Source of the DNA: Candidatus Nanohalarchaeota archaeon QJJ-9
Lineage (GTDB): Archaea > Nanohalarchaeota > Nanosalinia > Nanosalinales > Nanoanaerosalinaceae
DNA length: 51,141 nucleotides
NCBI GenBank assembly: GCA_022865275.1
Contig: JALIDQ010000001.1
Span: 1 to 51,141 of the forward strand
Direction: 5' to 3'
Each line of letters opens with the position of its first letter. The stretch's first letter is position 1. A program made the translations under genes and the position numbers. Positions 11,562 through 47,736 of this stretch are shown piece by piece. The notes beneath the pieces are model-generated. The model was given only the letters and a program-made list of their open reading frames with translations. It had not been told where the DNA came from and did no database searches.

Positions 11562-11569
11562 GTGGTTTG

Positions 11570-12454: not shown

Positions 12455-12500
12455 CTTTTTAGTATCAGGTATGGGAAGTATAATATGAGGAGAGAATGAG

Positions 12501-13415
12501 ATGGAGTTAGAAGAAGGACTTTCAGGGAAGCAGAAGGTTGAATATCTTTCGCTTGGAGCCGGAGGTATCCTTCAATTCTTTGGAATCTCTGTCTACGTGG
12601 TTTTCAATCCTTCTCTAGGAGCTGCAATATTTATAGCAGGTCTTATAGCTGCTTTTCTACCTTACGGTCTTTATACATACTTTCACGGTAAGAAAATAAG
12701 CAAAGTAGAGCAGGAGTTCCCTAACTTCCTTAAAAACCTTTCAGAGTCCCGTAAATCTGGTATGTCTGTTTCACAGTCTTTTAGAAACGCTGCAAATTCG
12801 GACTACGGTGAGCTAGATTCTTATGTGCGAAAGGCGGCAAATCAGCTTTCCTGGGGTATAACGTTTCCTGAGGTGATGAAAAACTTCCAGAAAAGCCTTA
12901 AGGAGTCTAGTATAGTTGCAAGGTCTATTTCGGTAATACTACAGTCCTACAGGTCGGGTGGAGACGTAGCGGAAACTATGGATTCTATAGCAGAGGATGC
13001 TAACAAGATAAAATCTGCTGAGAAGGAGAGGAAGTCGGTACTGACCCAGCAGGTCTTTATAATCTATGCGATCTACTTCCTGTTTATTGGGATACTTGTA
13101 GCTCTCTACAAGATACTTGTACCGTTGCTTGAAATCGGAGGAGGAGGTTTTATGGGAACCCCTCCAAATTTCTGTAATAGTGTTATAGGCCCTGTATGCA
13201 GTCTCTGCCCTACTTTCTTTGGTACACAGGGGGGAAGCCGTTTGTGCTACTATAAGGCTATCTTCCTTGTTATGATTGTTGTAGAAGGATTTTTCAACGG
13301 TCTTGTAGCGGGAGAAGTGCGTTCAGGGGATATCGCTTCAGGGTTCAAACATATAATGATAATGTTGCCTGTAGGATTCATTTCCTATGTAGGAGCTCTC
13401 CGTATTATGGGGTGA
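12501..13415 (+). CDS. T2SSF-domain polytopic membrane protein (FlaJ/TadC-like, second half-equivalent)
   Basis: EQEFPNFLKNLSESRKSGMSVSQSF ... SGGDVAETMDSIAED T2SSF-like domain between TM helices. Confidence 0.75.
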   Translation: MELEEGLSGKQKVEYLSLGAGGILQFFGISVYVVFNPSLGAAIFIAGLIAAFLPYGLYTYFHGKKISKVEQEFPNFLKNLSESRKSGMSVSQSFRNAANSDYGELDSYVRKAANQLSWGITFPEVMKNFQKSLKESSIVARSISVILQSYRSGGDVAETMDSIAEDANKIKSAEKERKSVLTQQVFIIYAIYFLFIGILVALYKILVPLLEIGGGGFMGTPPNFCNSVIGPVCSLCPTFFGTQGGSRLCYYKAIFLVMIVVEGFFNGLVAGEVRSGDIASGFKHIMIMLPVGFISYVGALRIMG

Positions 13416-13419
13416 GAAG

Positions 13420-14259
13420 ATGCATAAGGAGGGACAGATTTCTATAGACTATGTAGGGGGAGCTATGATATTCTTTGTTTCGATAGTTTTCGTTGTGCAG
13501 GGTATCGTAGGGACTATCCCTCAGTATTCCAGCATCGCCGAATCTAACCGTGAGGAGATAGCGGCATGGGGCCTATCAACTTCTCTTGTAAGTGATACAG
13601 GGTACTGGTCTGATGTGTACGATGGCACCAACTGGGAGGACAATGTTATCACAGGAAAGGTGAAGCGGATAGGTCTAAAGTCGCCGGAGGGATCTGGGGT
13701 TTCACGTGAGAAGATAAACAAGCTACTTGGTATGGATTATAAGGAGATAAAGAAGCTATTCGAGACAGGGAAGGATTTCAGCATAGAGTTTACAGAATAT
13801 GCGGTTGTAAAGCTTTCAGGAGAGTTTTATAGAGGAGGGGATATAGACGGTATAGAGACCTATAACGGTTTTAAACCTCCCAGTGATGGTTTAGGCGGTG
13901 CGGATAGGTATATGCGGTATGGGACTATATCTATCAATGGATCGGAGAGGTATTTTCTAGCATCCTTTGATGACTCTGATTTCGATGGTCTTTATGTTTC
14001 CGACTCTATAGATTTTTCAAGCTCTGAGAAACTTGAGCAGGGAGAACTTAAGACACTCGACTTTAACGGTAGAAGGTTCAGGTTCGGTTTAGGGAGTTCA
14101 GGCCTTTCTACCAGTAACGGAAAGATTCTGCTGGTGGAGAGGGTGATGGGTAGGATAGGTAGGAGGATCCCGACATCGGAGGAAACCGTTACCCGCGTTA
14201 AAAGATATTCAAACACTCAGAAATCGATTATAATGCTTGATATGAGGGTCTGGAAATGA
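13420..14259 (+). CDS. Pilin-like secreted protein (class III signal peptide), 279 aa
   Basis: N-terminus MHKEG/QISIDYVGGAMIFFVSIVFVVQGIVG; overlaps the next gene (ATGA-type junction at 14256-14259). Confidence 0.5.
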   Translation: MHKEGQISIDYVGGAMIFFVSIVFVVQGIVGTIPQYSSIAESNREEIAAWGLSTSLVSDTGYWSDVYDGTNWEDNVITGKVKRIGLKSPEGSGVSREKINKLLGMDYKEIKKLFETGKDFSIEFTEYAVVKLSGEFYRGGDIDGIETYNGFKPPSDGLGGADRYMRYGTISINGSERYFLASFDDSDFDGLYVSDSIDFSSSEKLEQGELKTLDFNGRRFRFGLGSSGLSTSNGKILLVERVMGRIGRRIPTSEETVTRVKRYSNTQKSIIMLDMRVWK

Positions 14260-18687: not shown

Positions 18688-19895
18688 AGTTCTTCGATAA
18701 ACTCTACCTCGTCCTCTGTAAGCTCTAGTTCTTCAGCTATACTTTTCTTCCATCCTTCTCTCTGGAAAAGTACCTGGAGGAAGGGTAGTATATCTACTGC
18801 CTTTGAGATAGAGATATGCATGTTTTCTCCTATTTTCTCTCCTATATCCTGCCTTTTCTTCCTCTGGGACTTGCTCTGTCCCATCTTTTTGATCCTTGAA
18901 GGGTAGCTGTAGCGTGTGAATCCTTTGTATTTTTCTTCCTTGCTTAGAGCTACTCCAACGGTCATAAGGCTGTACACGTATTTCAGCAGGGACCAGTTCT
19001 GGCTTTTTCTTATCCTACCGTTGAATAAGTCAGCTTTGGATATTTCCTCCATCGCTCTCGCCACATCTTCCTGCTTCTTGTATTCTTTGGGTATGTTCTC
19101 CCTTATCCACTGGAGTATCTCATCCGGTCCTTCGGAAAGATCTTCTGTCGCGTCTGAGGCGGTTTCCGCGTCCCCGGTCTTGAAGATGATTTTTAGGGCT
19201 TCGAATATATCTTTCTCGGTGTCACGATAGCCTAGCTCTTTTACTTCCTCTCTTGTAACCTTGTCATGCTTTTCTCCAAGGCTTTCGAGATCGTTTATAG
19301 CGGAGCGCATATCTCCGTCTGCATGTCTTGCTATGGACTTTAGAGCGGATTTTTCATATTCTATTCCTTCCTTTTCTGTGATTTCCTTCAGCTTTGCGTT
19401 TACTGAGTTTGTATGGACTTTTCCAAGTTCTACTACTTTGCTCTTCTTTCTTATAGACTGCATCCCGTTCGCGTATGCGTCGTTTGCGGTTAGTATTACG
19501 GGGAACTTTGACTTTTCGATTATACGGTTTATCTCGGACTTTCCTCCTCGATCCTTCGATGACATACCGTCTACTTCGTCTATCAAGATTATTTTGGTCT
19601 TCCCTGTAAGGGAGCGTTGTTTTACGGCCCTCATAACTTTTTCTTTAAGCGCTTTTTTTGTTCGTACGTCCGATGCGTTGGTCTCGTACACCTCGTAACC
19701 TAGCTCGTTCGCTACAACGTACACTAGCGCGGTCTTGCCTGAGCCTGGAGGTCCTGGCATAAGAAGTGATTGCGATTTCCTGTTGTGCCAGTTCTGTACC
19801 CAGTCTTTGACTTCCTCTACTTTCTTTGTGTTTCCCTGATATTCGTCAAGGTTTTCGGGTCTATATTTTTCTACCCATAGTTTGCTCTCTCCCAT
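18684..19895 (-). CDS. rfcL: Replication factor C large subunit
   Basis: LWVEKYRPENLDEYQGN, LLMPGPPGSGKTALV and KIILIDEVDGMSS; about 400 aa with the typical C-terminal extension. Confidence 0.9.
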   Translation of the reverse strand: MGESKLWVEKYRPENLDEYQGNTKKVEEVKDWVQNWHNRKSQSLLMPGPPGSGKTALVYVVANELGYEVYETNASDVRTKKALKEKVMRAVKQRSLTGKTKIILIDEVDGMSSKDRGGKSEINRIIEKSKFPVILTANDAYANGMQSIRKKSKVVELGKVHTNSVNAKLKEITEKEGIEYEKSALKSIARHADGDMRSAINDLESLGEKHDKVTREEVKELGYRDTEKDIFEALKIIFKTGDAETASDATEDLSEGPDEILQWIRENIPKEYKKQEDVARAMEEISKADLFNGRIRKSQNWSLLKYVYSLMTVGVALSKEEKYKGFTRYSYPSRIKKMGQSKSQRKKRQDIGEKIGENMHISISKAVDILPFLQVLFQREGWKKSIAEELELTEDEVEFIEEL

Positions 19896-19951
19896 ACTGC
19901 TAAGCTTTTCTACTCCGAACCTTTTAATTTATCTGTCCCCCTTTTCTTTGT

Positions 19952-20758
19952 ATGGGAAAGGGAATAACTCCTATAATAGCGGTTCTGATACTGACGGGTA
20001 TAGTCCTTTCTGGAGCCCTGGTAGCGCAGCAGTTTGTTCTTGATAGGCAGGAAGATATAAAAAACCACCTAGAAGAGGCTTTAAGGAATAATTTGGAAGT
20101 TGAAAGGGTATACTGTAACGGTAAGAAGCTTAGCTTTCTTTTAAACAATACTGGAGGCTATCATATCGATGAAGCGGGTGTGGATGTCTATATATACCAT
20201 GGAGCCGAGGCTAACTACTCAATGTCCCGCCGAGGTCTTACTTTTGAAGGAGGTTTTCAGGAGCCGCACAGCTCGGGCTATTTCAACGTAACTATAAACG
20301 GCTTATTCCTATCCGACCAGGTTTACTCAGTGGAGCTTGCTGGAACGGATGAACAGGCTTCTTTGAGGAAATCCTGCCGTGGAGGAAGGAGGTGGTGGGA
20401 TATCAACTGGGACTATAGAAGGCAGGTTGTTGTGGAGAACCAGGATAGCTCCGGAATAACCGATGGAATAGCTTCTGTAGAACTTAATACTTCCAGTCTT
20501 ATTGACGAGGGTAGGATGAATCCTGACTGCTCCGATCTGCGCGTGGTGGAGAAGGAAGAGGTTGTGGACTATTCGATAGATTCTTGCAACAGCCCTTCCA
20601 GTACTATAAAGTTTAGAAACTCTGTATCAGGTTATGGCCGGGCTTTCGACACGTATATCTATTATGGAAATCTTAGAGCGGAGGATGAGAGTGTTTCTAT
20701 AACTGATACTACTTCCTCGGATCTTGTTACTGACCTGAGATACGAAGAGTCTCGCTAG
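19952..20758 (+). CDS. Archaeal pilin N-terminal domain fused to a DUF2341-like domain
   Basis: MGKG/ITPIIAVLILTGIVLSGAL, then WWDINWDYRRQVVVEN...CSDLRVVEKEEVVDYSID...DTYIYYGN. Its stop codon overlaps the rfcS stop in a CTAG palindrome (20755-20758). Confidence 0.65.
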   Translation: MGKGITPIIAVLILTGIVLSGALVAQQFVLDRQEDIKNHLEEALRNNLEVERVYCNGKKLSFLLNNTGGYHIDEAGVDVYIYHGAEANYSMSRRGLTFEGGFQEPHSSGYFNVTINGLFLSDQVYSVELAGTDEQASLRKSCRGGRRWWDINWDYRRQVVVENQDSSGITDGIASVELNTSSLIDEGRMNPDCSDLRVVEKEEVVDYSIDSCNSPSSTIKFRNSVSGYGRAFDTYIYYGNLRAEDESVSITDTTSSDLVTDLRYEESR

Positions 20759-25281: not shown

Positions 25282-25408
25282 GCCCCGTTAGCTCAGCTGG
25301 GAGAGCACGTCCTTGGTATCTCAGGACACACTCCGAACCCGATGCCAACGCGAGTTGAGTCTGAGAACAGAAAGGACGAGGTCCCGGGTTCGAATCTCGG
25401 ACGGGGCT
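25282..25408 (+). tRNA. tRNA-Thr (anticodon GGU) with 54-nt intron
   Basis: GCCCCGT-TA-GCTC-AGCTGGGA-GAGC-A-CGTCC-TTGGTA [intron 25319-25372] A-GGACG-AGGTC-CCGGG-TTCGAAT-CTCGG-ACGGGGC-T. Confidence 0.85.
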
Positions 25409-25467: not shown

Positions 25468-28400
25468 TTACGAAGTTACGCATGCTTTTTGTGATTTTTG
25501 GGATTCTCCTGCTTCGTTGAACGCGGCTATTCTGTAACAAGCTTTTTCTCCTTGTTCTAGGTTTTTGTCTATGAAGTTTGTGTTTCTTTGGCCTGTTCCT
25601 CCTACATTGTTTGATTGGAAGCTGTGGACTTTTTTCCAGGTGCCTGAGGAGTTGGTGTAGACGTTGAATCCGTCCTCCACAACAGAAGCATCCCTAAAGG
25701 TTAGGTTTATTCCTAGACCAACCTCGAAAGTAAAAGTATCGGAAGTATAGTTTCCTTTTCCGTCTGATACGTTTACGTACCAGTTGTAGGTTGTGTTTGC
25801 TTCTAGTCCTGTCCATGAGACGCTTGCTGAACCGCTTCCATTGATTTCTGTCTGTTTGGAGCCGATTTGCTCGTTGTTGTTTGCGTTGAAGAACCATGCG
25901 TCCATCGAATCACCGTCCGCATCCGAAACATTAACATCTAGATCTGCAACAGTCGAACCAAGAACCTTCCCGCCCGAAGGAGAAGGATTGGATACTGTAG
26001 GTAGTTTATTGACGTCATTAATCATCAACTTAAAGCTATCGATACTAGGAGAATGGGAATGTCCACTATCCGTTACAGAAAGGTTTGTTTCTATTTGGTA
26101 TCTGTAGCCGCCGGATAGATTGAAATCATTGTCCTTAAATGTGTTTAATCCGTCTGAAAGGCTTACTCCATCACTCTCTGAATGACTCCAGGATTCAATA
26201 CTCCCGTCATCATCCGTATCAACACCCAACCTAACCAAAGCCTTTTCACCATTACCTATAGAAGCATTAACCTTCAAACTGTTAACCTGCTGCTCAACAG
26301 AAGTTCCTGCATCCCAGATATTAGACCTCCAAAAACCCTTCTCAGAACCTTTGAAAAACTCAATCCTACCAGTAACCATCCTACAAGTATCCCCATTAGA
26401 AACCGTATTCCACATCCTAACCGAATCAAAACTGCTTGGAACAGTTTTAGAAGTATTTGAAGAATCAAAAACATACCACTCCTCCCCATCCGCACCAACA
26501 ACAGTCCCAACATCATCCTGAGACCAATCACTCTCCGCCCAAGCACTAGAACCCTCAGATTTATCCGTAAGAACATCAAAAGACTTAACCAAATTATCAT
26601 TCTCATCAAAGAAATCTACCGCAAGACCATCAGACTGAGCTGTATTACTATCAATCCTCAAAGGAGTAGTCCTCAAATACAACCTAAACCGTTCAGCACC
26701 CTGATAAGCCCCAGGAAAACCATATTGACCCTCAAGCCAATAACGCACACCCCTATTACTACTCCCACCATCCTGATTCCAGTAAAAAGAACCAGAACCC
26801 TCCTCAAAATAATAACTATCCGTAAAATAATCACCAGCATCCACACCATTAAGATTACGTAAATCCACCGGATAATTGGACAAACCATCCTGAGAATCAT
26901 GCGGAACAACAGTAACACGATCCAACCTCAAAGAACCCGCCTCAGTAGTAGTATTCGAAAAACTACCTAAACCCCAATCACCCCCCGAAACAACCCTCCA
27001 AACCTCCCCAGTCTCAACACGAAAACCACGCTCAGAAAGAGAAACAGTATCAGAACCATCAGAAACCACCACATACCAACTATAATCCGAAAAATCCTCC
27101 AAACCACTCCAAGTAACAGAAGCAGTACCACCAGAACTTACACCAGTAACCTTCTCAATCAACGAACCATCAGAAGCATCGTAGAACGAAACATTCATAT
27201 CCTCACCCTCCCTATGCTCCAAACTAACATTCAACTCAGGACTAGAAGTCTCCAAGACCTTACCATCCGCAGGACCATAACCCGCAACATCCAACCAACC
27301 ATCACGCGTAAACAACTCAAAACCACCAACACCCGGAGAATGAGAAAAATTACCATCAGTCACAGACAAATTAAACTCAGCCTGATAACGATAACCTGAA
27401 GAAAGATCAAAATCACCGCCTCCCAAACTATTCAAACCATCAGAAACACTTACACCACCACCCTCAGAATGACTCCAGGTATCAATACTCCCGTCATCAT
27501 CCTCATCAACACCCAAACGAACCCTAACAGACTCATTCACACCAACAGAAGCATTAACCTCCAAACCATCAACCTGCTGCTTAACAGAAGTCCCAGCATC
27601 CCAAACCCTACTACTCCAAAAACCAGAATCAATAGAACTGTTCTCAAAACTATCAGGCCTAGTACGATTATACAACTGCCCAATCTCACTCTCCGACAAA
27701 GCCCGGTCGTATATGCGGACCTCATCTATTTTGCCGTTGAAATAATCTGCCCATCCATCGCCCATACCTCCTTGGTCGTTCCCTAGTGAATCATAATAGC
27801 TTCCGGTGGAAGGACTTGAGCTGAAACTTGCCACTTCTTGACTGTTTTTGTAAATCGTAAATGTGGAACCATCTTCTACTGCTGTTAAGTGAGTCCAAGT
27901 ATCAGCTGAGATAGTAGTTAAATCGCTATGGTAGTTGCCGTTTTGCCATGTTGATATGTAACCATTTGAGTTCTCTGCAATCCAGAATGGAAGGAAGCTG
28001 GCAGAGCCCCTCAAAGCTATAACTCTCTGAGAACTAGAGACAGTATCAGGATTCAACCATAAGGACACTGTCTTAGGCGAAGGATTAGGCAATAGACTTG
28101 GAAGATCTGTATAATCATCGCTTCCATCAAAACTCAGAGCGTTCCCATACATTCCGTCTGTCCAGATGGCTCCGTTGATGGTTCCGTCGTTGTTGTTTCC
28201 TGATATGTCGTATGCTGTGGTTCCTGTTCCTTCGTCCATGGACCACCATCCGACTGCATCCTTACCTGTTAGGCTGACTTGGCTGTTGTTCGCAACAGTA
28301 CGAATGTCACGACCTAGCTCCCAGTCCAACCAATCGTTTTGAGAACTAACTGTCCAGAGTTCTTTGTTCTCGGTTCTAAAGCTTCTTGGTGATAGGTTAG

Positions 28401-29574
28401 CGGTGTTAGTTCCGTCTGTGACTTTGATGTACCATGTGTAGTTTGTAAAGTCCTGCAGGCTAGACCAGGTAATAGAAGCAGTAGATCCAGAACTTACACC
28501 CGTAACTTTCTCTATTAACGAGTCGTCGGAAGCATCGTAGAACGACACGTTCATATTTTCGCTATTGTTATGTTCTAAGGTAGCATTCAATACCGGGTTA
28601 ACAGTATCCAAGACTTTACCATCTTCTGGAGATAGTGAAATATTCGACAACCATCCTTCATGGGTTTCAAGCTCGAAAGAGCTAATAGAAGGTGTATGGG
28701 AGGTGTAACCATCAGTGATACTTAGATTATACTCTATTTTATACCGGTAGCCCGGAGGTAAACCAAAATCAGAACCATCCAACATATTCGAACCATCAGA
28801 AACACTTACTCCGTCTCCTTCTGAATGGCTCCAGGAATCTATTGTACCGTCATCATCCGTATCAACACCTAAACGAACCTTAACAGACTCATTCACACCA
28901 ACAGAAGCATTAATACGGAGATAATCTATCTTTTGAAAAGATACAGCGTCTGTATCCCAGACTGGAGAAGACCATAAACCATCAGAATAGTATGAACTGG
29001 TTCTTAAATTATCAACAGAAAAATCTATAATCTGGCCACCATAATCTGATCCAACAAATTTCCCATAAAACTTAACTGTATGTGTTCCCGAATAACTAGA
29101 AATATTTACAGATACCGGGGTTTTTGTCAGTCCGTCATTAGTAGTGACCCAGACAGTACTTCCATCAATTCTTAACTGAGCCTCATCATCGGAACCGCCA
29201 TCAAGATCCCTAACATTTATATCAAAGTAAAGAGTACCGCCATCAAGATTAAAATCCTTATACATCTCCGGCTCCGGAGTATTACCTTCATCACCTCCTA
29301 AATTTAGGGCGCCAGTACCTTCAGTATACCAAGTCGAATCATTCTGAGCCTCAGGCCCGCTCCAACCACTTTCACAGGAATCTCTAGGAACTTCCAGAGT
29401 TAGAGTAGTATTATAGTTAGTCCGGTTAAAATATCCTTCCCCCCATTCAGTTTGATTGTTAACGTTCCAGTTTGTTGCTGTTACACTTGTAGAGAAAAGA
29501 GGTAGTAGTATAAGGAAGGATAATAGAAGGAACGAACTCTTCTTGCTTCCTAACTTTTTTCTTGTGCTGGCCAA
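25468..29574 (-). CDS. Giant secreted adhesin-like protein (1368 aa): signal peptide, three tandem modules of about 205 aa, LamG domain, FN3-like C-terminal module
   Basis: TTG start with AGGTGG 6 nt upstream and signal-like LLLSFLILLPLFSTSVTA. LamG-like WWSMDEGTGTTAYDISGNNNDGTINGA...IDEVRIYDRALSESEI. Repeats carry RLGVDxDDDGxIxxWSHSE. Many N-x-S/T sequons. Confidence 0.85.
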   Translation of the reverse strand: MASTRKKLGSKKSSFLLLSFLILLPLFSTSVTATNWNVNNQTEWGEGYFNRTNYNTTLTLEVPRDSCESGWSGPEAQNDSTWYTEGTGALNLGGDEGNTPEPEMYKDFNLDGGTLYFDINVRDLDGGSDDEAQLRIDGSTVWVTTNDGLTKTPVSVNISSYSGTHTVKFYGKFVGSDYGGQIIDFSVDNLRTSSYYSDGLWSSPVWDTDAVSFQKIDYLRINASVGVNESVKVRLGVDTDDDGTIDSWSHSEGDGVSVSDGSNMLDGSDFGLPPGYRYKIEYNLSITDGYTSHTPSISSFELETHEGWLSNISLSPEDGKVLDTVNPVLNATLEHNNSENMNVSFYDASDDSLIEKVTGVSSGSTASITWSSLQDFTNYTWYIKVTDGTNTANLSPRSFRTENKELWTVSSQNDWLDWELGRDIRTVANNSQVSLTGKDAVGWWSMDEGTGTTAYDISGNNNDGTINGAIWTDGMYGNALSFDGSDDYTDLPSLLPNPSPKTVSLWLNPDTVSSSQRVIALRGSASFLPFWIAENSNGYISTWQNGNYHSDLTTISADTWTHLTAVEDGSTFTIYKNSQEVASFSSSPSTGSYYDSLGNDQGGMGDGWADYFNGKIDEVRIYDRALSESEIGQLYNRTRPDSFENSSIDSGFWSSRVWDAGTSVKQQVDGLEVNASVGVNESVRVRLGVDEDDDGSIDTWSHSEGGGVSVSDGLNSLGGGDFDLSSGYRYQAEFNLSVTDGNFSHSPGVGGFELFTRDGWLDVAGYGPADGKVLETSSPELNVSLEHREGEDMNVSFYDASDGSLIEKVTGVSSGGTASVTWSGLEDFSDYSWYVVVSDGSDTVSLSERGFRVETGEVWRVVSGGDWGLGSFSNTTTEAGSLRLDRVTVVPHDSQDGLSNYPVDLRNLNGVDAGDYFTDSYYFEEGSGSFYWNQDGGSSNRGVRYWLEGQYGFPGAYQGAERFRLYLRTTPLRIDSNTAQSDGLAVDFFDENDNLVKSFDVLTDKSEGSSAWAESDWSQDDVGTVVGADGEEWYVFDSSNTSKTVPSSFDSVRMWNTVSNGDTCRMVTGRIEFFKGSEKGFWRSNIWDAGTSVEQQVNSLKVNASIGNGEKALVRLGVDTDDDGSIESWSHSESDGVSLSDGLNTFKDNDFNLSGGYRYQIETNLSVTDSGHSHSPSIDSFKLMINDVNKLPTVSNPSPSGGKVLGSTVADLDVNVSDADGDSMDAWFFNANNNEQIGSKQTEINGSGSASVSWTGLEANTTYNWYVNVSDGKGNYTSDTFTFEVGLGINLTFRDASVVEDGFNVYTNSSGTWKKVHSFQSNNVGGTGQRNTNFIDKNLEQGEKACYRIAAFNEAGESQKSQKACVTS

Positions 29575-36321: not shown

Positions 36322-36635
36322 TTTAAGACCTCCGAAGCCCGCCTGCCTGGGTCGAACAGGCATCTCCGGGTTTAACTGGTGTGTTGCCTGGACGCTTGCG
36401 GGGGATTTTAGAAGTAGTAGACTGCGTCCTTTTACACTAAGGCGGGTTGAGTTAGAAGGTTTCGTCCACCTTTCCACCCACCTGGCTTATTTCCTGGCGG
36501 GTTTCGAGGAGAACTACTCCTCAGAATTATCTCCACATGATATCTGTGGAGTAGAAGTGTAGCTTTGTGACTAGGCCGATCTTTTCTCCGCTATTGTCCG
36601 AAGGCCCAGTCGCATTTATCATTTTGACCAACGCA
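36322..36635. ncRNA. Unassigned structured non-coding region (candidate RNA gene; identity and strand unresolved)
   Basis: About 310 nt without a credible ORF and visibly more GC-rich than neighbouring spacers. Several perfect hairpins (CTCCACA-N7-TGTGGAG, GAGGAG-N5-CTCCTC, GGACGC...GCGTCC). On the minus strand there is a tRNA-like T-arm plus acceptor (GCCTG-TTCGACC-CAGGC-AGGCGGG, pairing with upstream CCCGCCT). A TTTTTAAAT box sits at 36654-36662 on the minus strand. Confidence 0.3.
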
Positions 36636-36817: not shown

Positions 36818-36844
36818 CTTTTTCTTTTTAGAAAAAAGAAAAAG
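36818..36844. terminator. Perfect 12-bp A/T hairpin downstream of tRNA-Pro
   Basis: CTTTTTCTTTTT-AGA-AAAAAGAAAAAG at 36818-36844. It presents a T-run on either strand and lies between convergent tRNA-Pro and the phosphoribosyltransferase gene. Confidence 0.35.
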
Positions 36845-38909: not shown

Positions 38910-38996
38910 GTTTTTCCTTGTTTTCTTTGTTTTTCTGGTCCTATTAACGAAGCCTTTATAAAGTTTTGAATATATATTCATAAGTGGTGATTGAAG

Positions 38997-39296
38997 ATGC
39001 CAAACCTAGACGGAACCGGACCAAGGGGACGAGGCCCTCTTACGGGAAGAGGTCTCGGACCTTGCGGAAGAGGAAGAGCCCGTTCAAGAGCTCCTAAACG
39101 AGGATTCGCTTTTAGAAGGGGTGGAAGATTTGGAAGAGCTCCTCTTAGAGGTAGGAACGATTACGCTTACAGAAACAAACCTCGGAATACGAGGTTTACA
39201 GAGGAAGAGGAGAAGGAGATGATCAAACAGGAACTTGAGGAGCTTAAGAAGGAACGAGAAGACCTTGAGAAACGCCTTGAGGAGCTTGGGGGCTGA
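38997..39296 (+). CDS. DUF5320-family protein
   Basis: MPNLDGTGPRGRGPLTGRGLGPCG N-terminus typical of DUF5320, followed by a coiled-coil tail. Confidence 0.65.
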   Translation: MPNLDGTGPRGRGPLTGRGLGPCGRGRARSRAPKRGFAFRRGGRFGRAPLRGRNDYAYRNKPRNTRFTEEEEKEMIKQELEELKKEREDLEKRLEELGG

Positions 39297-39329
39297 ACCC
39301 CTTTTTACTTTTTATAACGGTGTTATACA

Positions 39330-39626
39330 ATGCCAAGACCGAGGAGGAGGAGAAGGGTTAGAAGAAGACCTGCAGCGGATTTTTACAAGCCGGCAGGAAT
39401 ACCTAAACGCGAGCTTGAAGAGGTCAATCTTAAAGTAGAAGAAGTCGAGGCTCTGAGGTTGAAGGACGCGGAAGGAAGGTCTCAGGAGGATGCTGCTGAC
39501 GAGATGGATGTCTCGCAGTCTACTTTCCATAGGATTCTGACTTCTGCAAGGGAGAAGGTTGCGGAGGCTGTAACTGAAGGAATGGCTCTTAGAATAGAGG
39601 GGGGAAGCTATGAGATTGAGGAGTAG
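39330..39626 (+). CDS. DUF134 (UPF0251) putative DNA-binding protein
   Basis: MPRPRRRRRVRRRPAADFYKPAGIP N-terminus and HTH-like DEMDVSQSTFHRILTSAREKVAEA. Confidence 0.8.
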   Translation: MPRPRRRRRVRRRPAADFYKPAGIPKRELEEVNLKVEEVEALRLKDAEGRSQEDAADEMDVSQSTFHRILTSAREKVAEAVTEGMALRIEGGSYEIEE

Positions 39627-40062
39627 AATAGTTAGTATTGATTATGAAGGACTTAGAAGCTCGTTTCGCAGAGCTGCGAAGGGTTTATCTAACGCTTTAC
39701 CTATGATAGTCGGAGTCGTCTTCTTGATGGGGCTTGTGAAGAGTTTTGTACCCAAGAGTTTCTATATAGAATTTCTAGGCGGATCCTGGCTCCGATCAAG
39801 TCTTATGGGTTCTGGTGTAGGAAGCGTTCTCGCAGGTAACCCTGTTACCTCGTATATAATCGGAGGGGAGATGCTTTCTCAAGGGGTTGGTCTCTATGCG
39901 GTAACCTCGTTTATCCTTGCATGGGTTACAGTTGGAATAGTCCAGTTCCCAGCGGAATCTGAGGAGCTTGGAAGAAGGTTTGCTTTGACGAGAAATGTTT
40001 TTAGCTTTTTACTAGCTCTTGCAGGTGGTTTTGTAACCGTGGCTATCCTGGGGGTGCTATGA
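39610..40062 (+). CDS. Small polytopic membrane protein (permease half)
   Basis: 150 aa with about 4 TM helices. Overlaps both neighbours and sits within the DUF134/NifX-like cluster. Confidence 0.5.
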   Translation: MRLRSRIVSIDYEGLRSSFRRAAKGLSNALPMIVGVVFLMGLVKSFVPKSFYIEFLGGSWLRSSLMGSGVGSVLAGNPVTSYIIGGEMLSQGVGLYAVTSFILAWVTVGIVQFPAESEELGRRFALTRNVFSFLLALAGGFVTVAILGVL

Positions 40063-40580
40063 TGCTTTACAGCTATTTTAAGAGGAGCTTTAGGAAATGG
40101 GTTTTTGTAGCTATTGTAGGAGGTTTTTACGGCCTAGGATGGTTTTTAAGACCTGAAAAAGCTGTTTCAGCTTTTTACAGCTCTGTTGGAATTTTTAGAA
40201 ATATACTGCCTGTTTTTGTTCTGGTATTTGCTCTGATGGGAGTTACTAACTATTTTGTAAAGCCTAAGAAGCTTCTGAACTATTTTGGGAGTCATAGAAG
40301 TGTTAAGGGGTGGATTATAGCGTCTCTAGCAGGGATTATTTCGCATGGACCGATTTTTATGTGGTATCCGTGGCTTTCTGATCTTCAGGAGAAAGGAGTC
40401 GGCAACGGTTTTATAGCTACATTTCTATACAACCGGGCTGTGAAGGTTCCTCTGATCCCTTTTATGGCGCTCTATTTTGGGATAGACTTTGTTGCTGTAC
40501 TTACTCTTGTTATGATAGTTTTTTCCCTTTTTCAAGGAGTTTTAGTCGGCAAACTTTTAGAAAACAAAGGAGGTGATTGA
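40059..40580 (+). CDS. Small polytopic membrane protein (permease half)
   Basis: 173 aa with about 5 TM helices; ATGA overlap with the preceding gene. Confidence 0.5.
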   Translation: MMLYSYFKRSFRKWVFVAIVGGFYGLGWFLRPEKAVSAFYSSVGIFRNILPVFVLVFALMGVTNYFVKPKKLLNYFGSHRSVKGWIIASLAGIISHGPIFMWYPWLSDLQEKGVGNGFIATFLYNRAVKVPLIPFMALYFGIDFVAVLTLVMIVFSLFQGVLVGKLLENKGGD

Positions 40581-40887
40581 TTTGAAAGTTGCTGTAGCTT
40601 CTGAATCTGATTCGAGGTCTGGAAAGGTTAGCAGTAAGGCTGGAAGAGCTCCTTTCTACCTGATTTTCGAGGACGGCGAGCTTGTTGAGACATGGAAGAA
40701 CGAGTATGCTGAGGCTCGTGGGGGGGCTGGAAGAAATGTTCCTGAGGAGCTTGACAGGAAGGGCGTTGATAAGGTTTTGGCTGGAAACTTTGGAGGGAAT
40801 ATGGAGACCAAGCTCAAGCAGCTCGGTATTGCCTATAGTACGGTGGGAGCTGTTGATGTGGAAGAGACTGTTGAGCTCGGGTCTTGA
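40573..40887 (+). CDS. NifB/NifX-family (dinitrogenase FeMo-cofactor-binding fold) small protein
   Basis: About 104 aa: KVAVASE...GRAPFYLIFEDGELV...GVDKVLAGNFGGN, the pattern of stand-alone NifX/NifB C-terminal-like proteins. GTG start follows AAGGAGG. Confidence 0.6.
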   Translation: MIDLKVAVASESDSRSGKVSSKAGRAPFYLIFEDGELVETWKNEYAEARGGAGRNVPEELDRKGVDKVLAGNFGGNMETKLKQLGIAYSTVGAVDVEETVELGS

Positions 40888-40985
40888 TTGGTTTTGGTTG
40901 TTGGAGGTAGGGCTGTGGGACAAAATTTATTTAAGTATACCCGCCGCCTATTTTTTCCGAGAGTTAGGAGTTTTTGAGGTAAATT

Positions 40986-41115
40986 CCCTCCTTAGCTCAG
41001 GTCACAGATCAGAGATCTGTTCGATGACCTAACGCTGGGATTTTTTGCAAAATCCCTCCTTAGCTCAGTTGAAAACCTGGCGGTTTTCGGCTATGAGCTA
41101 ATACCGGGATCAAAA
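40986..41115 (+). repeat. Two extra copies of the tRNA-Tyr 5' end (CCCTCCTTAGCTCAG), each followed by a different hairpin spacer
   Basis: The exact 15-mer occurs at 40986-41000, 41054-41068 and 41116-41130 (the last is the start of the real tRNA). Spacer hairpins: GGTCA-CAGATC-AGA-GATCTG-TTCGA-TGACC (41000-41029) and GAAAACC-TGGC-GGTTTTC (41071-41088). Confidence 0.7.
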
Positions 41116-41220
41116 CCCTCCTTAGCTCAGCCTGGCAGAGCGTCCGCCTGTAGCACCAGCCGGATGCTATCCACTGTTTCAGCCAGCGGATCGTCCCCCG
41201 TTCAAATCGGGGAGGAGGGA
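41116..41220 (+). tRNA. tRNA-Tyr (anticodon GUA) with 31-nt intron
   Basis: CCCTCCT-TA-GCTC-AGCCTGGCA-GAGC-G-TCCGC-CTGTAG [intron 41154-41184] A-GCGGA-TCGTC-CCCCG-TTCAAAT-CGGGG-AGGAGGG-A. Has the C1:G72 pair characteristic of archaeal tRNA-Tyr. Confidence 0.9.
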
Positions 41221-41267
41221 TTTCTATTTTTTCCTTTGATTTTTTCTCGTTTTACAGGTTTTTCAGA

Positions 41268-41336
41268 GATTTGAACGACCTTGATTCTCTTCGAGAACCG
41301 TGGAGTGCAAATCGGGGAGGAGGGATTTCTATTTTT
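41268..41336 (+). repeat. Orphan copy of the tRNA-Tyr 3' end preceded by an inverted T-loop fragment and a TTCTC-TTC-GAGAA hairpin
   Basis: 29-nt exact direct repeat caaatcggggaggagggatttctattttt at 41203-41231 and 41308-41336. Upstream lie GATTTGAAC (inverted partner of GTGCAAATC) and TTCTCTTCGAGAA (41285-41297). Confidence 0.65.
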
Positions 41337-44424: not shown

Positions 44425-44499
44425 GCCGAGATGGTGTAGTCCGGCCCATCATACCAGCCTGTCACGCTGGTGACGCGGGTTCAAATCCCGCTCTCGGCG
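44425..44499 (+). tRNA. tRNA-Asp (anticodon GUC), intronless
   Basis: Acceptor GCCGAGA/TCTCGGC, GGTGTAGTCCGGCCCATCAT D-region, anticodon arm CCAGC-CTGTCAC-GCTGG, T-arm GCGGG-TTCAAAT-CCCGC, discriminator G. Confidence 0.9.
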
Positions 44500-44774
44500 T
44501 CACTTCGTTCCTTGAAGAGTTTTTCAGGGGTTACAAGCTCTACTTCTCTTTCTTTCAGTTCTTCTGTCTTCTGGAAATTATAGTTGAGTGGAAAAATCTT
44601 ATGATCAGCAGCGGTCTGTACCCGTAAAATTCCTTGTCCAGACACCCAGTTAGTCTCATCAATTTTTTCTTCAACTATATAAGCATCATCTGAGAGCAGG
44701 GTGTCCTTCCAGCTTGAGTAGGTGTTTTCCCTGGACTGACAGTAGCCTCTGTACTGTTGACATACGGTTATCAT
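44481..44774 (-). CDS. Hypothetical protein whose last codons are antisense to the tRNA-Asp 3' end
   Basis: 97-aa ORF; the stop and final 6 codons overlap tRNA-Asp (44481-44499). A truncated, start-less homologue of its C-terminus (EELKEREIDLATPEKLLKDEINAESGV) follows the second att copy at about 46146-46250. Confidence 0.4.
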   Translation of the reverse strand: MITVCQQYRGYCQSRENTYSSWKDTLLSDDAYIVEEKIDETNWVSGQGILRVQTAADHKIFPLNYNFQKTEELKEREVELVTPEKLFKERSDAESGI

Positions 44775-44819
44775 AATTTATGTGTAAACGGTTTGCAAGG
44801 TTGAAAGAGAAAGACCTGC

Positions 44820-44912
44820 GGTATAATCTATACCTCAGTTGTGGTATAAAAAATACCAGAAGGTATTTAAATTTTGGTACAAAATATACCACCAGTTTGG
44901 TATAAAATATCC
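44820..44912. promoter_or_regulatory. Array of five GGTAT-N-ATACC-type palindromic/half-palindromic repeats in a divergent intergenic region
   Basis: GGTATAATCTATACC (44820-44834), GGTATAAAAAATACC (44843-44857), GGTATTTAAATTTT (44862-), GGTACAAAATATACC (44876-44890) and GGTATAAAATATCC (44899-44912). Start-to-start spacing is 23, 19, 14 and 23 nt. Confidence 0.45.
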
Positions 44913-45074
44913 GAGTTGTCTGATTGAGAGAGGTAGAAAAAGATTACAACTATAGAAGAGCACAAAAGGAAGATAAAAGAACATCTTGATGAAATAAACG
45001 AAGCCTTAGATATAGGAATCGATAAGAGACCGACTACGATTGGACTTCACACCTCTCTTTGCTCGACAGAGCTT

Positions 45075-45374
45075 TTGGAACTTTATCTTCACTTGGAGAA
45101 CAAGATAAGTATGGGAAAACAGATAAAGCATAACTGGTTCAAGAGACCAAAGGAAGACCAGAAAAAAGACCCTTTGCCAGATAGGAAAATAGGAGCGGAA
45201 TTTCCAAATAAGGAGAGGATTTATTCTCTTCTATATAGCATAGAGGAAGAAAGAGATAATTTGGTTTACGGAAGAGCGGAAGAGGAACAGACTAAAAAAG
45301 TGCTTAAATCTTTCCAAGAGTTGAAATCCATCTTAATTGAGAGAATAGAGAAAGAAGGTGTCGAACTTGAATAA
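45075..45374 (+). CDS. Hypothetical protein (possibly 5'-truncated)
   Basis: The frame is open from 44937 (KKITTIEEHKRKIKEHLDEINEALDIG...), but the first start-type codon is TTG 45075. Overlaps the nucleotidyltransferase start by 17 nt. Confidence 0.35.
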   Translation: MELYLHLENKISMGKQIKHNWFKRPKEDQKKDPLPDRKIGAEFPNKERIYSLLYSIEEERDNLVYGRAEEEQTKKVLKSFQELKSILIERIEKEGVELE

Positions 45375-45984
45375 ATACTCTCTGATAAGTTACGCAATAG
45401 AATATATATCCTTTATGTTGAGGAGCCAGGAATTAGAAAAGGATAATATCAAGAGTGTGATCTTGTTTGGATCAGTGGCGAGAGGAGATTTTGATAAGGA
45501 TAGTGATATTGACATCTTTATTGATCTTTATGATCTGGAAGATAGGGATAAAATTAAGGAAGAGGCCGAGCGAAGGCTTAAGAACTTTTACAAGTCCGAT
45601 AGTTTCCATAAATGGGAGCTGAGAGGGATTGATAACGAGATAAATTTGAAGATTGGAGATCTGGATAACTGGAAGTTAAAAGATTCAATTATAAGCGATG
45701 GAATTTCGCTCTACGGTTCCTATAAAGAAGTTCCTGAAGGAGATAGTTTTATCCTGTTCACCTTTGAACCGATCAAGCCTGTTAAAAAACGGAACAGAGT
45801 AATCAGAAATCTATTTGGAAGAAGCGATTACCCTTCCCAAGGTCTGGTTGAAGAAATGAATGGTGAAAAACTGACTTCCAGAAGTTTTGTAGTTCCTAAG
45901 AGGAACATGGAAGAAGTAAAGAAAGTACTGGATGATAACGATGTAGATTACTCTTTATACGAATTATACTCTTCACAGTTTTAG
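45358..45984 (+). CDS. Nucleotidyltransferase-domain protein (MNT-like)
   Basis: VILFGSVARGDFDKDSDIDIFI minimal-NTase signature (GS...D.D), followed by a C-terminal region of about 130 aa of unknown family. Confidence 0.75.
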   Translation: MSNLNKYSLISYAIEYISFMLRSQELEKDNIKSVILFGSVARGDFDKDSDIDIFIDLYDLEDRDKIKEEAERRLKNFYKSDSFHKWELRGIDNEINLKIGDLDNWKLKDSIISDGISLYGSYKEVPEGDSFILFTFEPIKPVKKRNRVIRNLFGRSDYPSQGLVEEMNGEKLTSRSFVVPKRNMEEVKKVLDDNDVDYSLYELYSSQF

Positions 45985-46144
45985 AGAAGCTTGAGGAAAG
46001 GGGGTCTAGTGAGTGGAAAGGGAAGTGGTCTGGTCAGGTATTATGTAGCCAAAGAGTAGAACTATGAACCGATTCTCCCCCCCAAATGAGTCAATTCCTG
46101 AGTCAGTTCTATTACTGATGCCTTCTCTTCGAGAAGTCTTGTAT

Positions 46145-46231
46145 CAAACCCCGCTCTCGGCGTTGATTTCATCCTTGAGAAGCTTTTCAGGGGTTGCAAG
46201 GTCTATTTCTCTTTCTTTCAGTTCTTCTGTG
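46145..46231 (+). repeat. att-like copy 2: tRNA-Asp 3' end plus about 70 nt of flanking arm
   Basis: An 87-nt alignment with 44482-44568 shows 14 mismatches by hand count (about 84 percent identity). It starts with caaaccccgctctcggcg versus caaatcccgctctcggcg. Confidence 0.7.
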
Positions 46232-47718
46232 AACCTGTTTTTGGAGATGCGTTTTTATTTAACTTTTCTTTCGTTGTTTCTCCACTGCAAGACTTTACCT
46301 GCTTTTTCTCTGATAGGGGCCCCAACGGTCGGAAAGAAAGAGTGTATTTGGTTCCACTTTTTCCCCTGAATTTACTGTATCTGTTTCCAACTTATCGTAA
46401 AGTTTTTATATACAAGATTCCAATAGATTCTGTATGGGTCTGGAAGATGAGATAGTTCGGCAGAATCCTCAGTGGAGAGGTGAAAAGCTTTCCAGGGGAA
46501 GTATCTGTAGGGAAAAGGAGGAGGAGATCAGAGAGGAGTTAGATGAGGATATTGTGACCGCTATAACAGGGATGAGAAGGGTGGGGAAGACGACTTTGAT
46601 GCAGAGGATTATAGATAGTTTAGAAGAGAGAGGTGAAAGAACATTCTACTATTCTTTCGATATAGACAAGGTTGAGGTAAGAGAACTATTGGAGACTTTC
46701 TTCCAGGAGATCGAGAACGAAAGCCCGGAACAAGCCGGTAGCGTGTACATCTTCCTGGACGAGGTGCAGAAAATCGAGGGCTGGAGCGACCATGTAAAGG
46801 CCTACCACGACCGTTACGAAAATCTGAAGTTTTTCGTGACCGGCTCTTCATCCGCAAATATCAGAAAAGGCGGTGGAGAAAGCCTGGTCGGAAGGATCAG
46901 CATCTACAGTTTAACGTCTTTCACATTCAGAGAGTTCCTGAGGTACCGCGGAATCAGTATACCGGAGAAAGACTTCGAAAAACTGGCTCTGCCTGAAAAC
47001 TCGAACCGGATAAAAGCAAAGCTACCGGAGTATCTGGAGACAGGAGGCTTCCCTGAGCTGATGGATAAGGAAGAGACTGTAAGGAGGGAAAGGCTGAACG
47101 ACATACTAGACCTGACGCTTTACAGGGATATTGTGGAGCTCTTTGGAGTAGGAAGACCAGAACTGCTCGAGGCAATATTCAAGTCGATAACTGAGACCAG
47201 CGGAAACACGGTAAACTACAATAAGCTCGGTAAAAACCTGGATGCGCAGTATAAAACAGTCAGAAAGTATGTTGATGCGCTGGAACAATCATTTCTGATA
47301 GAAAAAAGCCGGAGACTACAGAACAACAAGCTACAGGAATACAAGAAAAGGCCGAAAATCTATGCGGGAGAACACAGCTTCTGCTCACTTCAAGGAACAA
47401 AGAAAGGCCTGAAAGCAGAGACAGCAGCCTACAACCACCTCAAAACAAAAGGAGAAACAGGTTACTGGCGCAAAAAACAGGACGAAGTCGATATAATCCT
47501 CAAGCAAGGTGAGAATCTGAAGGCGTTTGAGGTCAAATACAGGAACCAGGAAGGAAAAACAGAGTTCAACAGCTTTAAAAAAGAGTGCCCGGAAGCGGAA
47601 ACATTCCAGATAACCAAAAACACGCTGGACAGAGACAAAGACAAAATACCGCTCTGGCTACTACTTGTACATATCTAAAGAAACCGCTGCAGACCTCTGC
47701 AAGCCTAGATATTTATGT
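46163..47718. mobile_element. Putative integrated-element remnant 2 at tRNA-Asp (no integrase present)
   Basis: Bounded by att-like copy 2 and copy 3 (47719-47736). Cargo is the AAA_14/DUF4143-type ATPase. Confidence 0.35.
46434..47678 (+). CDS. AAA_14/DUF4143-type ATPase
   Basis: Walker A ITGMRRVGKTTLMQ, Walker B VYIFLDEVQKIEGW, and a C-terminal DUF4143-like region with a nuclease-like tail (EVDIILK...FEVKY). Confidence 0.8.
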   Translation: MGLEDEIVRQNPQWRGEKLSRGSICREKEEEIREELDEDIVTAITGMRRVGKTTLMQRIIDSLEERGERTFYYSFDIDKVEVRELLETFFQEIENESPEQAGSVYIFLDEVQKIEGWSDHVKAYHDRYENLKFFVTGSSSANIRKGGGESLVGRISIYSLTSFTFREFLRYRGISIPEKDFEKLALPENSNRIKAKLPEYLETGGFPELMDKEETVRRERLNDILDLTLYRDIVELFGVGRPELLEAIFKSITETSGNTVNYNKLGKNLDAQYKTVRKYVDALEQSFLIEKSRRLQNNKLQEYKKRPKIYAGEHSFCSLQGTKKGLKAETAAYNHLKTKGETGYWRKKQDEVDIILKQGENLKAFEVKYRNQEGKTEFNSFKKECPEAETFQITKNTLDRDKDKIPLWLLLVHI

Positions 47719-47736
47719 CAAATCCCGCTCTCAGCG
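47719..47736 (+). repeat. att-like copy 3 (18 nt of the tRNA-Asp 3' end) followed by a T-run
   Basis: caaatcccgctctcagcg versus caaatcccgctctcggcg in the tRNA (1 mismatch). It is followed by ctttttttttgggg, which looks like the original tRNA terminator flank. Confidence 0.55.

Follow-up and report, generated by a model that had tools for sequence, protein, structure and literature searches.

Palindromic units that carry duplicated tRNA ends recur at tRNA genes of Nanohaloarchaeota

Partial tRNA genes that lie beside intact ones in archaea have been attributed to integration (PMC9897764). At the attachment (att) junctions of archaeal tyrosine integrases (of the SSV, pNOB8, pT26-2, and pTN3 types), a segment of the tRNA gene is present as a direct repeat and an intact tRNA is restored; elements that target the 5' half of the gene are known as well, and related integrases have retargeted to many tRNAs (PMC8371274). 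Here we describe palindromic units that carry duplicated ends of tRNA genes, which we call orphans. We found them in a 51-kb contig of the nanohaloarchaeon Candidatus Nanohalarchaeota archaeon QJJ-9 (JALIDQ010000001.1, positions 1 to 51,141; "the window"), and we compared them to loci from its relatives and to contigs from IMG/VR (the fetched loci and contigs have L numbers). A preliminary description of the window had reported that the hairpin TTCTC-N3/4-GAGAA precedes orphan 3' ends at three tRNA genes, and had proposed a family of integrating elements with a conserved hairpin arm and interchangeable cores that match the tRNAs. The three hairpins belong to one recurring junction structure, and the finding is real and more general than first described.

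The units are similar to archaeal att junctions in several ways. Both have a direct repeat of part of the tRNA and an intact tRNA, both have a block of identity that runs from a loop with dyad symmetry to the end of the gene or beyond, and both can be arranged in tandem. The 5' halves of tRNA genes are also hit in both (in the case of known elements, by pTN3-like ones), as are many different tRNAs. Because archaeal integrases are already documented to retarget to many tRNA genes, interchangeable cores would not be unprecedented (PMC8371274). Unlike the known junctions, most of the units are just 46-124 nt and free of cargo, we found no integrase with them, the arm is a palindrome with an inverted copy of the core, and the units are conserved, and covary, across distant species. 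In the case of the tRNA fragments that archaeal elements leave behind, kilobases of element DNA lie between the fragment and the tRNA, and there is no palindromic joint. A model for such a fragment, of tRNA-Thr in Caldiarchaeum, was reportedly presented by Sugahara and colleagues in 2012.

TTCTC-N3/4-GAGAA occurs three times in the window (at 2886, 41285, and 46123), and all three copies lie just upstream of duplicated tRNA 3' ends. The distance from GAGAA to the CAAA of the orphan is 9-10 nt at tRNA-Ala, tRNA-Tyr, and tRNA-Asp. In dinucleotide shuffles of the window, the expected number of copies was 0.48, and just 1 of 100 shuffles had at least three. As first reported, the 13-mer TTCTCTTCGAGAA is the same at Tyr and Asp; also, ACCTYGATTCTCT..GAGAA is common to Ala and Tyr, with about 20 nt shared around the hairpin. 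Local alignment of the hairpin regions gives p of about 0.001 for the Tyr/Asp pair and likewise for the Ala/Tyr pair. There are no copies of the motif in 170 kb from relatives (L001-L011). The preliminary description missed two orphan 5' ends at tRNA-Tyr, a third tRNA-Asp 3' end, inverted copies of the T-loop, and the coding extension of the Asp repeat.

In each of the units at 3' ends, the hairpin caps a longer imperfect palindrome: one outer arm is an inverted copy of the T-loop (GGATTTGAA-like), and the T-loop of the orphan itself is the other. Reading in the sense of the tRNA, the order is the intact tRNA, a copy of the trailer (with or without cargo), the inverted T-loop region, a short perfect hairpin, and the duplicated 3' end, starting from the T-loop. 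Across 12 units, the inverted T-arm 12-mer is present in the inserts far more often than expected (Fisher P of about 1e-8), and in 8 of the 12 it lies 20-29 nt before the orphan. The inverted copy spans 8-23 nt in the 3' units. The outer helix GGATTTGA/TCAAATCC is conserved in seven units, while the inner stems vary and yet remain Watson-Crick paired. More broadly, half-sites of the T-loop, in either orientation, make up a mosaic in the inserts: 5-mers from these half-sites occur 27 times in the 924 nt of 11 inserts, versus 5.2 expected (P of about 1e-11). The shuffles, the half-site counts, the test for inverted copies, and the alignment p-values exclude chance as the source of the motif and the architecture. 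The inner boundary of the duplication is fixed in the T-loop or T-stem (or, for 5' units, in the D-loop), while the outer boundary lies 0-18 nt past the end of the gene (66 nt at Asp). An intact tRNA is regenerated at every unit. The proposal that the hairpins are the arm of an element holds in part: they are related to each other beyond chance and they lie on the insert side of the duplicated tRNA end, but each is the center of a palindrome rather than a free-standing hairpin.

The simplest units in the window are at the 3' ends of tRNA-Ala and tRNA-Tyr. The tRNA-Ala(GGC) gene (2947-3109, minus strand; Rfam tRNA, 49.2 bits; ARAGORN Ala(ggc)) has a 91-nt intron, which holds perfect 7-bp hairpins at 3000-3016 and 3017-3033. 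An insert of 66 nt follows the gene (2881-2946, minus strand); besides a copy of the native trailer, it contains the inverted T-loop GGATTTCATAAC at 2905-2916 and the hairpin GATTCTC-TGGC-GAGAATC at 2884-2901. Orthologous inserts are present in L142 and L151. The orphan (2858-2880, minus strand) extends from the T-loop to the discriminator, is identical to 2947-2969 at 23 of 23 positions, and is followed by the T-run TTTTCTT. The tRNA-Tyr(GTA) gene (41116-41220, plus strand) has a 31-nt intron at 37/38, as found by ARAGORN with introns allowed and by alignment to the intron-less tRNA-Tyr of relatives. Rfam does not detect this gene even at E ≤ 1, and ARAGORN with default settings labels it as tRNA-SeC. 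The first 11 nt of its 3' insert (41221-41307, plus strand) are part of the direct repeat. The insert also contains the inverted T-loop AGATTTGAACGA (41267-41278; 10 of 12 matching, p = 0.001) and the hairpin GATTCTC-TTC-GAGAAcC (41283-41299). The orphan (41308-41336, plus strand) includes the 3' end of the tRNA and 11 nt of trailer with a T-run, and all 29 nt are identical to 41203-41231. The distance between the real tRNA and the orphan was put at about 65-85 nt originally, and indeed it is 66 nt at Ala, while at Tyr there are 76 nt of unique sequence (87 nt from the end of the tRNA). Neither of these inserts carries cargo.

In contrast, at tRNA-Asp there is foreign cargo (a nucleotidyltransferase and an ATPase) between the repeats. 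The tRNA-Asp(GTC) gene (44425-44499, plus strand; Rfam, 62.9 bits; also found by ARAGORN) is followed by cassette 1, an orphan, cassette 2, and another orphan, with one candidate defense gene per cassette. The inserts are about 1.6 kb each (1.66 kb for cassette 1), and each is closed by an orphan. Cassette 1 (44500-46143) contains ORFs of 97 and 99 amino acids and a minimal nucleotidyltransferase (45358-45984; Pfam NTP_transf_2, 1e-10; PADLOC PDC-S09, 4e-11). It ends in a palindrome (46116-46146, plus strand; fold z = -3.0) with the outer helix TGATGC/GTATCA and the inner hairpin CTTCTC-TTC-GAGAAG (46122-46136), which includes the shared 13-mer (46123-46135). The 3' arm of this palindrome continues into the T-loop of the first orphan. 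Cassette 2 (46231-47717) contains an AAA_14/DUF4143 ATPase (46434-47678; Pfam AAA_14, 1e-32; DUF4143, 1e-22; PADLOC PDC-S01, 1.8e-65), and it terminates in the nested palindrome ATATCTA..TGCAGA-cc-TCTGCA..TAGATAT, 5 nt ahead of the second orphan. That orphan (TCAAATCCCGCTCTCAGCG; 47718-47736, plus strand) matches at 18 of 19 positions and is followed by a run of nine Ts. Synteny comparisons found no counterpart of the cassette region in the relatives.

The repeat at the first Asp orphan is unusual because it extends into coding sequence. The orphan and the 66 nt beyond it (46144-46230, plus strand) are 85% identical over 87 nt to 44481-44567, and the 66 nt are homologous to the sequence downstream of the real tRNA-Asp. 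On the minus strand, the repeat encodes a conserved C-terminal peptide (..TEELKEREIDLATPEKLLKDEINAESGV*), with the frame broken upstream at the orphan copy. At the real tRNA, this is the C terminus of the 97-aa ORF (44481-44774, minus strand), whose stop codon is inside the T-loop of tRNA-Asp, on the opposite strand. A search for homologues of this ORF matched only the window itself, and it has no match in Pfam, PHROG, NCBIfam, or PADLOC. A truncated paralogous C terminus lies at the first orphan (46144-46250, minus strand). In translation, the two repeats differ by conservative amino acid (codon) changes, which suggests that they diverged as genes in separate elements before insertion. Across the three tRNAs, the direct repeats are 23, 29, and 87 nt (the last at 85% identity), and Rfam or ARAGORN finds an intact tRNA at each.

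Two more orphans lie upstream of tRNA-Tyr, in mirrored units that we call A (40981-41048, plus strand) and B (41049-41115, plus strand). Both orphan 5' ends (at 40986 and 41054) have the sequence CCCTCCTTAGCTCAG, and each is followed by a perfect 7-bp hairpin. In unit A, the orphan (40986-41000) is followed by the hairpin ACAGATC-aga-GATCTGT (41004-41020) and then by the orphan in inverted form, together with its upstream flank; this palindrome is identical at 23 of 30 positions (p = 0.0003). Similarly, the orphan of unit B (41054-41068) precedes the hairpin GAAAACC-tggc-GGTTTTC (41071-41088), beyond which lies the inverted copy TGAGCTAA..GGGAT (22 of 29 identical, p = 0.003). A second palindromic junction, GGGATTTT-ttgc-AAAATCCC, is at 41037-41056. 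Further upstream, about 2 kb (38991-41032) separate a CARDB-domain gene from tRNA-Tyr. In relatives, these two genes adjoin and the segment is absent. It encodes a DUF5320 protein, a DUF134 helix-turn-helix protein, and an ArsP-type permease that is split over two ORFs.

To see how widespread the units are, we fetched loci from relatives around the orthologues of two proteins from the window: a uracil-DNA glycosylase, which is 64-74% identical to proteins from Candidatus Nanohaloarchaea and Nanohalobium, and a phosphoesterase, for which the best relative is at most 62% identical. ARAGORN identified 56 tRNA genes in these loci, some of which represent the same locus in several strains. Orphans accompany tRNA-Tyr(GTA) at seven of nine loci: six have 5' orphans, about 60 nt upstream, and four have 3' orphans, 58-130 nt downstream. 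Empty sites were found in L004 (on both sides) and in L005 (on the 5' side). In L007, an orphan occupies the exact place of the real 5' end in L005, 41 nt past a conserved upstream motif. For tRNA-Ala(GGC), there are 3' units in the window and in L142, L151, L152, and L156, while in L144, L146-148, and L153 a T-run comes directly after the tRNA, and L149 and L157 also lack an orphan. The relatives with empty sites are distant (56-72% protein identity). We also identified a 3' unit at tRNA-Ser of L011 and a 5' unit at tRNA-Ile of L142. In general, the orphans follow the acceptor sequence of their own species, with occasional mismatches. In L142, the T-loop of the orphan is split by a further insertion that bears a hairpin (GGGTTCAA|54 nt|ATCCCG), and L011 is comparable.

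One pair of strains shows a sharp transition within the tRNA. For 3.8 kb, L151 and L152 agree at 99.84% of positions, and from about position 50 of tRNA-Ala onward they are wholly different. The tRNA-Ala of L152 (3758-4214) has the 5' two-thirds of a nanohaloarchaeal gene and the 3' third of another tRNA-Ala allele, and then GC-rich DNA. The new 3' end (CCGGTCCA), judging by the acceptor stem, is consistent with a tRNA-Ala whose acceptor is GGGCCGG. An ORF in the GC-rich DNA downstream of this unit has no homologues, and no plasmid or phage matches beyond the tRNA. Two observations concern L142, which is a contig of 611 kb. First, a type I CRISPR-Cas locus (Cas6, Cas8-like, Cas7, Cas5, Cas3, Cas4, and Cas1; 12353-20612) lies about 1 kb downstream of the tRNA-Ala unit. 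Second, a tRNA-like 5' fragment (7143-7278) with a different anticodon arm (GTCGGG-TTACAC-CCCGAC) lies upstream of tRNA-Ile(TAT), and it terminates in a palindrome from the 5' half of a T-arm (ACCGGGTTCG-ctc-CGAACCGG).

Some of the units are old. Orthology is evident for the Ala units in the window, L142, and L151: the trailers can be aligned, and the orphan sides of the window and L151 are identical at 16 of 22 positions, even though the neighboring phosphoesterases are just 56-57% identical. An Ala unit that is shared by such diverged species has not transposed recently, so the idea of a recently mobile mini-element fails here. The hairpins of these units differ and yet pair perfectly (GATTCTC/GAGAATC, GGTCCTC/GAGGACC, and GAACC/GGTTC), with compensatory changes at three pairs, as judged by direct reading. 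Also by direct reading, we saw no G·T pairs in about 20 hairpins with roughly 150 stem base pairs; Watson-Crick pairing is broken just twice, by an A·C at Tyr and by a C·T in L152. The absence of G·T pairs points to constraint on the DNA or to templating, rather than to selection on the RNA. Hairpins at different tRNAs of the same genome can be alike (GATTCTC/TTCTC in the window; GAAGCTC in L008 and in L009). Across genomes, GAGCTTCGGGTTCAAATC is common to the Tyr units of L008 and L009 and the Ser unit of L011, and GAAAATC(C) occurs in L010, L011, and L156. As for the source of the arms, GAGGACC in L151 is one base off from positions 43-49 of tRNA-Ala (GAGGCCC), while the Tyr and Asp arms in the window have no convincing match to their own tRNAs.

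A similar junction is found in bacterial proviruses. We scanned IMG/VR for GGATTTGAA-N14-40-GGTTCAAATCC and found 79 loci (L159-L237), of which about 70 represent one GC-rich family of bacterial proviruses. Their junction is a perfect palindrome of two inverted tRNA 3' halves, with 23-nt arms (CCAGAGGTCCACGGTTCAAATCC) that covary with the allele of the tRNA. One arm runs on into a complete tRNA 3' end, the CCA, and the host's terminator. The other arm is 57-77 nt from a gene for a tyrosine integrase. For example, in L160 the palindrome is at 8164-8221 and the integrase is at 8278-9117 (Phage_integrase, 1.5e-20), while in L165 the palindrome is at 12464-12514 and the integrase is at 11557-12387 (3.7e-19). 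One contig has two junctions that are 25 kb apart. The spacer of 5 or 12 nt occurs in both orientations, which suggests flip-flop inversion beside the integrase. The junction had no match in INPHARED, and we know of no published description of palindromic junctions of tRNA halves in proviruses. The proviruses share several features with the 3' units of nanohaloarchaea: an inverted copy of the T-arm, a short spacer, an orphan 3' end, a host terminator that is kept, and tandem junctions. They differ in that an integrase is 57-77 nt away, a phage genome of 25 kb lies between the junctions, the 23-nt arms are perfect, the center is at the anticodon stem, and the spacer flip-flops.

Our best explanation, which we hold tentatively, is that the units may well be relics of site-specific insertion at the T-loop (or D-loop) of the tRNA, by an enzyme of the tyrosine recombinase type that uses a palindromic arm. 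We suspect this type of recombinase because of the geometry of the repeats: the inner boundary is fixed in a loop with dyad symmetry, the outer boundary varies, and the gene is always regenerated. Insertion would also account for the empty sites, the foreign accessory genes and the protein-level divergence of the repeats at Asp, and the hairpin that Asp shares with the mini-inserts, and the proviruses provide a precedent. That a recombinase made the units, which recombinase it was, and why so little DNA lies between the repeats are things we infer. The incoming DNA would bring a replacement for the end of the tRNA, so that the gene stays intact, and the displaced original end would become the orphan. 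The arm next to the crossover would be palindromic, with an inverted copy of the core and a capping hairpin, which would give two inverted core-type sites. A mirrored version at the D-loop would yield the Tyr 5' orphans. At tRNA-Asp, two tandem insertions would have brought single candidate defense genes; at Ala and Tyr, the att-type arms alone would remain, or perhaps nothing else was ever present. Some of the units would be old and decaying, with their orphan T-loops hit anew by nested hairpin insertions.

Several results weigh against this explanation. First, nearly all of the units are free of cargo and of similar small size (46-124 nt), which random decay of larger elements would not yield. 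Second, the 5' units are near-complete inverted copies of the orphans, with host-specific upstream flank and two palindromic junctions, as expected from template switching (see below). Third, D-loops and T-loops are both hit, sometimes with similar hairpins (the GAAGC type in L008 and L009), and a process driven by structure would fit this more easily. Fourth, Pfam scans of the ORFs in the window and in the neighborhoods from relatives found no integrase or recombinase gene in or near about 20 nanohaloarchaeal units. In the relatives, the variable region from tRNA-Tyr to the glycosylase gene contains housekeeping genes and no integrase. Fifth, scanning IMG/VR for the 13-mer with CAAA gave just eight chance matches, with no hairpin beside a tRNA end, and the 3' ends of nanohaloarchaeal tRNA-Ala, tRNA-Tyr, and tRNA-Asp had no matches there. 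We also scanned metagenomes for ACCTYGATTCTCT-N2/3-GAGAA; among the matches listed, which were chance matches and a gut repeat that is unrelated, none was followed by a tRNA T-loop. Neither the window, nor about 25 related loci, nor IMG/VR yielded an integrase or a full-length element that carries the hairpin (the preliminary description had suggested looking for such an element beside an integrase). Finally, L152 looks like a fresh replacement and may be a natural T-arm recombinant, or else it may be an assembly chimera with a haloarchaeal locus. (If it is a chimera, then the unit belongs to a haloarchaeon, and the phenomenon extends past the Nanohaloarchaeota.) Overall, the original proposal of integrating elements is supported by the att-type identity blocks, the empty sites, and the 1.66-kb accessory insert at Asp, but not by an integrase or a full-length element. 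Viruses of nanohaloarchaea that encode integrases do exist, as does one integrated provirus (bioRxiv 10.1101/2025.02.15.638363).

A possible but rather less probable explanation is that the units arose by template switching during replication, as micro-scale tandem inversion duplications, and that no mobile element was involved. The nascent strand would stall at the hairpin of the D-arm or T-arm, copy back on the opposite strand, and switch forward again, which would leave direct, inverted, and direct copies. Later deletions would trim the inverted copy, and repeated correction of the quasi-palindrome would keep the stems perfect. Tandem inversion duplications occur in Salmonella. Like the units, tandem inversion duplications and quasi-palindromes have direct-inverted-direct copies, palindromic junctions with loops of 3-4 nt, Watson-Crick stems, and arms that change in concert, and template switching can both generate perfect hairpins and preserve them (PMC8794818). 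This would be the best fit to Tyr units A and B and the second junction between them. It would also fit the half-site mosaics, the lack of G·T pairs, and the concerted changes in the arms of the Ala hairpins. Perfect hairpins with stems of at least 7 bp are 2.5-fold enriched across the window (39 versus 15.3 in shuffles), and the left arm in L151 is about 80% an inverted copy of positions 43-65 of tRNA-Ala. Furthermore, template switching would keep the gene intact automatically and would need no integrase, which matches the lack of integrase hits. However, it offers no source for 1.6-kb foreign cargo at tRNA-Asp, and it does not account for the protein-level conservation between the Asp repeats, for the same hairpin at three tRNAs of one genome (which is not found in the host tRNAs), or for GAGCTTCGGGTTCAAATC at both Tyr and Ser. 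The inverted copy is full length in none of the 12 3' units. It is mostly limited to the T-loop, and only in L151 does it reach the T-arm and variable region. In the proviruses, the same architecture is tied to integrase genes. And unlike tandem inversion duplications, the units are tens of nucleotides in size, are tied to tRNA D-loops and T-loops, have foreign cargo at one locus, and share a hairpin between loci.

We considered two variations on mobile DNA, and both seem unlikely. Integron attC sites and the attP(+) site of CTX-phi are recombination sites that fold from a single strand. If a similar system operates here, then the module of inverted T-loop, hairpin, and T-loop would fold as single-stranded DNA and mimic the duplex of the T-arm, and a recombinase that is encoded elsewhere (a viral integrase, perhaps, or XerA of the host) would make irreversible insertions of small cassettes at T-loops, with a mirrored site at D-loops. 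The cassettes would hold single defense genes, or they would be empty except for a new end for the tRNA. Such a system would account for why the spacing is constant, why the stems are perfect although their sequences vary freely, why there are units without cargo, and why arrays are tandem and nested. The units do resemble attC and attP(+) in being imperfect palindromes with inverted outer cores and an inner stem, whose pairing is kept while the sequence varies: there is an outer helix in seven units, the inner stems are varied and paired, and the spacing is 20-29 nt. The small single-gene cassettes in tandem at Asp and the irreversible accumulation of scars are also similar. On the other hand, the target is a tRNA loop, and the duplications measure 15-42 nt (at Asp, 87 nt that are 15% diverged) instead of 6-7 nt.

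The other variation is that the units of 65-110 nt are themselves miniature non-autonomous elements, or attP-only cassettes, that are still mobilized in trans, with a conserved hairpin arm and exchangeable cores. It is about as improbable. The occurrence of one hairpin at Ala, Tyr, and Asp of the same genome speaks for it, as do the consistent cargo-free architecture and the hairpin segments that were inserted into orphan T-loops without long duplications (in L142 and L011). A few types of hairpin recur across species and tRNAs (GAAAATC(C), GAAGCTC, and GATTC). But the Ala unit is ancient, no two units are near-identical, and the hairpin is confined to its three copies in 51 kb, with none in the 170 kb from relatives. 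A circle of 70-110 nt also has no known route of excision, replication, or transfer, and most of the supposed arm is the target's own sequence, inverted.

It is quite doubtful that the units were retained for a function in the leader or trailer of the pre-tRNA, such as a structured leader, a trailer with the sole T-run terminator, or sequestration of the orphan strand. Judging from the sequences of L005 and L007, the orphan lies at the original distance from the promoter, so it is probably transcribed as a leader. Also, at Ala and at Tyr of L008-L010, the first T-run comes after the orphan and not after the real tRNA, the compensatory changes keep the pairing in the orthologous Ala units, and the outer helix is conserved. 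However, roughly 150 stem base pairs, by direct reading rather than a tool's count, include no G·U, which points to the DNA and not the RNA. Many relatives manage without units, and the orphans gather mismatches and nested insertions. Rfam, even at a permissive threshold, found no family on the inserts, and the fold z-scores of whole inserts are modest (-0.5 to -2.9). Moreover, a function would account for the retention of the units but not for their origin.

We set aside several other types of origin. A MITE or another DDE transposon does not fit because the duplications are 15-42 nt (87 at Asp) instead of fixed, the insert does not end in inverted repeats (its ends are cttcgc.../...atctca), and the outer arm of the palindrome is inside the duplication. 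The spacing of the hairpin, about 10 nt, and TCAA presumably resembles the right end of IS608, but most units have one hairpin module and long duplications, and there is no TnpA or TnpB among the ORFs that were scanned, so we rejected elements of the IS200/IS605 type. Casposons, whose target duplications are 14-15 bp, were set aside. The insert sizes are wrong for CRISPR-like duplication of a repeat. Finally, a split tRNA or a bulge-helix-bulge intron seems unlikely on inspection by eye: the ends of exon and intron would be identical instead of complementary, and T-runs separate the Tyr gene from its orphan.

The window has a few other notable features. A perfect 12-bp palindrome, CTTTTTCTTTTT-aga-AAAAAGAAAAAG (36818-36844), comes directly after tRNA-Pro(TGG). 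Five tRNA genes (41116-41220, 2947-3109, 4650-4834, 25282-25408, and 36337-36446) have long introns, from 31 to about 110 nt, with perfect 7-bp hairpins. The last of these, a tRNA-Trp on the minus strand, is detected only if introns are allowed. A 1368-aa ORF (25468-29574, minus strand) has three diverged internal repeats of about 1.3 kb with 64-81% identity.

Duplication of a tRNA end at an insertion hot spot is of a known kind. What we did not find described anywhere is the miniature palindromic architecture, its presence at both ends of the gene, and its persistence across the phylum with covarying hairpins. If our best explanation is correct, then the units are a record of insertion at tRNA genes for a DPANN phylum in which little is known about mobile elements, and they represent an unreported architecture for an att site, with a palindromic arm and an inverted copy of the core, that also occurs beside the integrases of bacterial proviruses. 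Whatever the mechanism, the small tRNA-Asp array shows single candidate defense genes being stacked at one tRNA of a very reduced genome, and the tRNA genes of nanohaloarchaea are hot spots of structured partial duplication at both ends. Orphans and long introns defeat the standard tools, so tRNAs in this phylum need careful annotation. These hot spots bear on how the tRNA genes of archaea become disrupted, acquire introns, and shed fragments.

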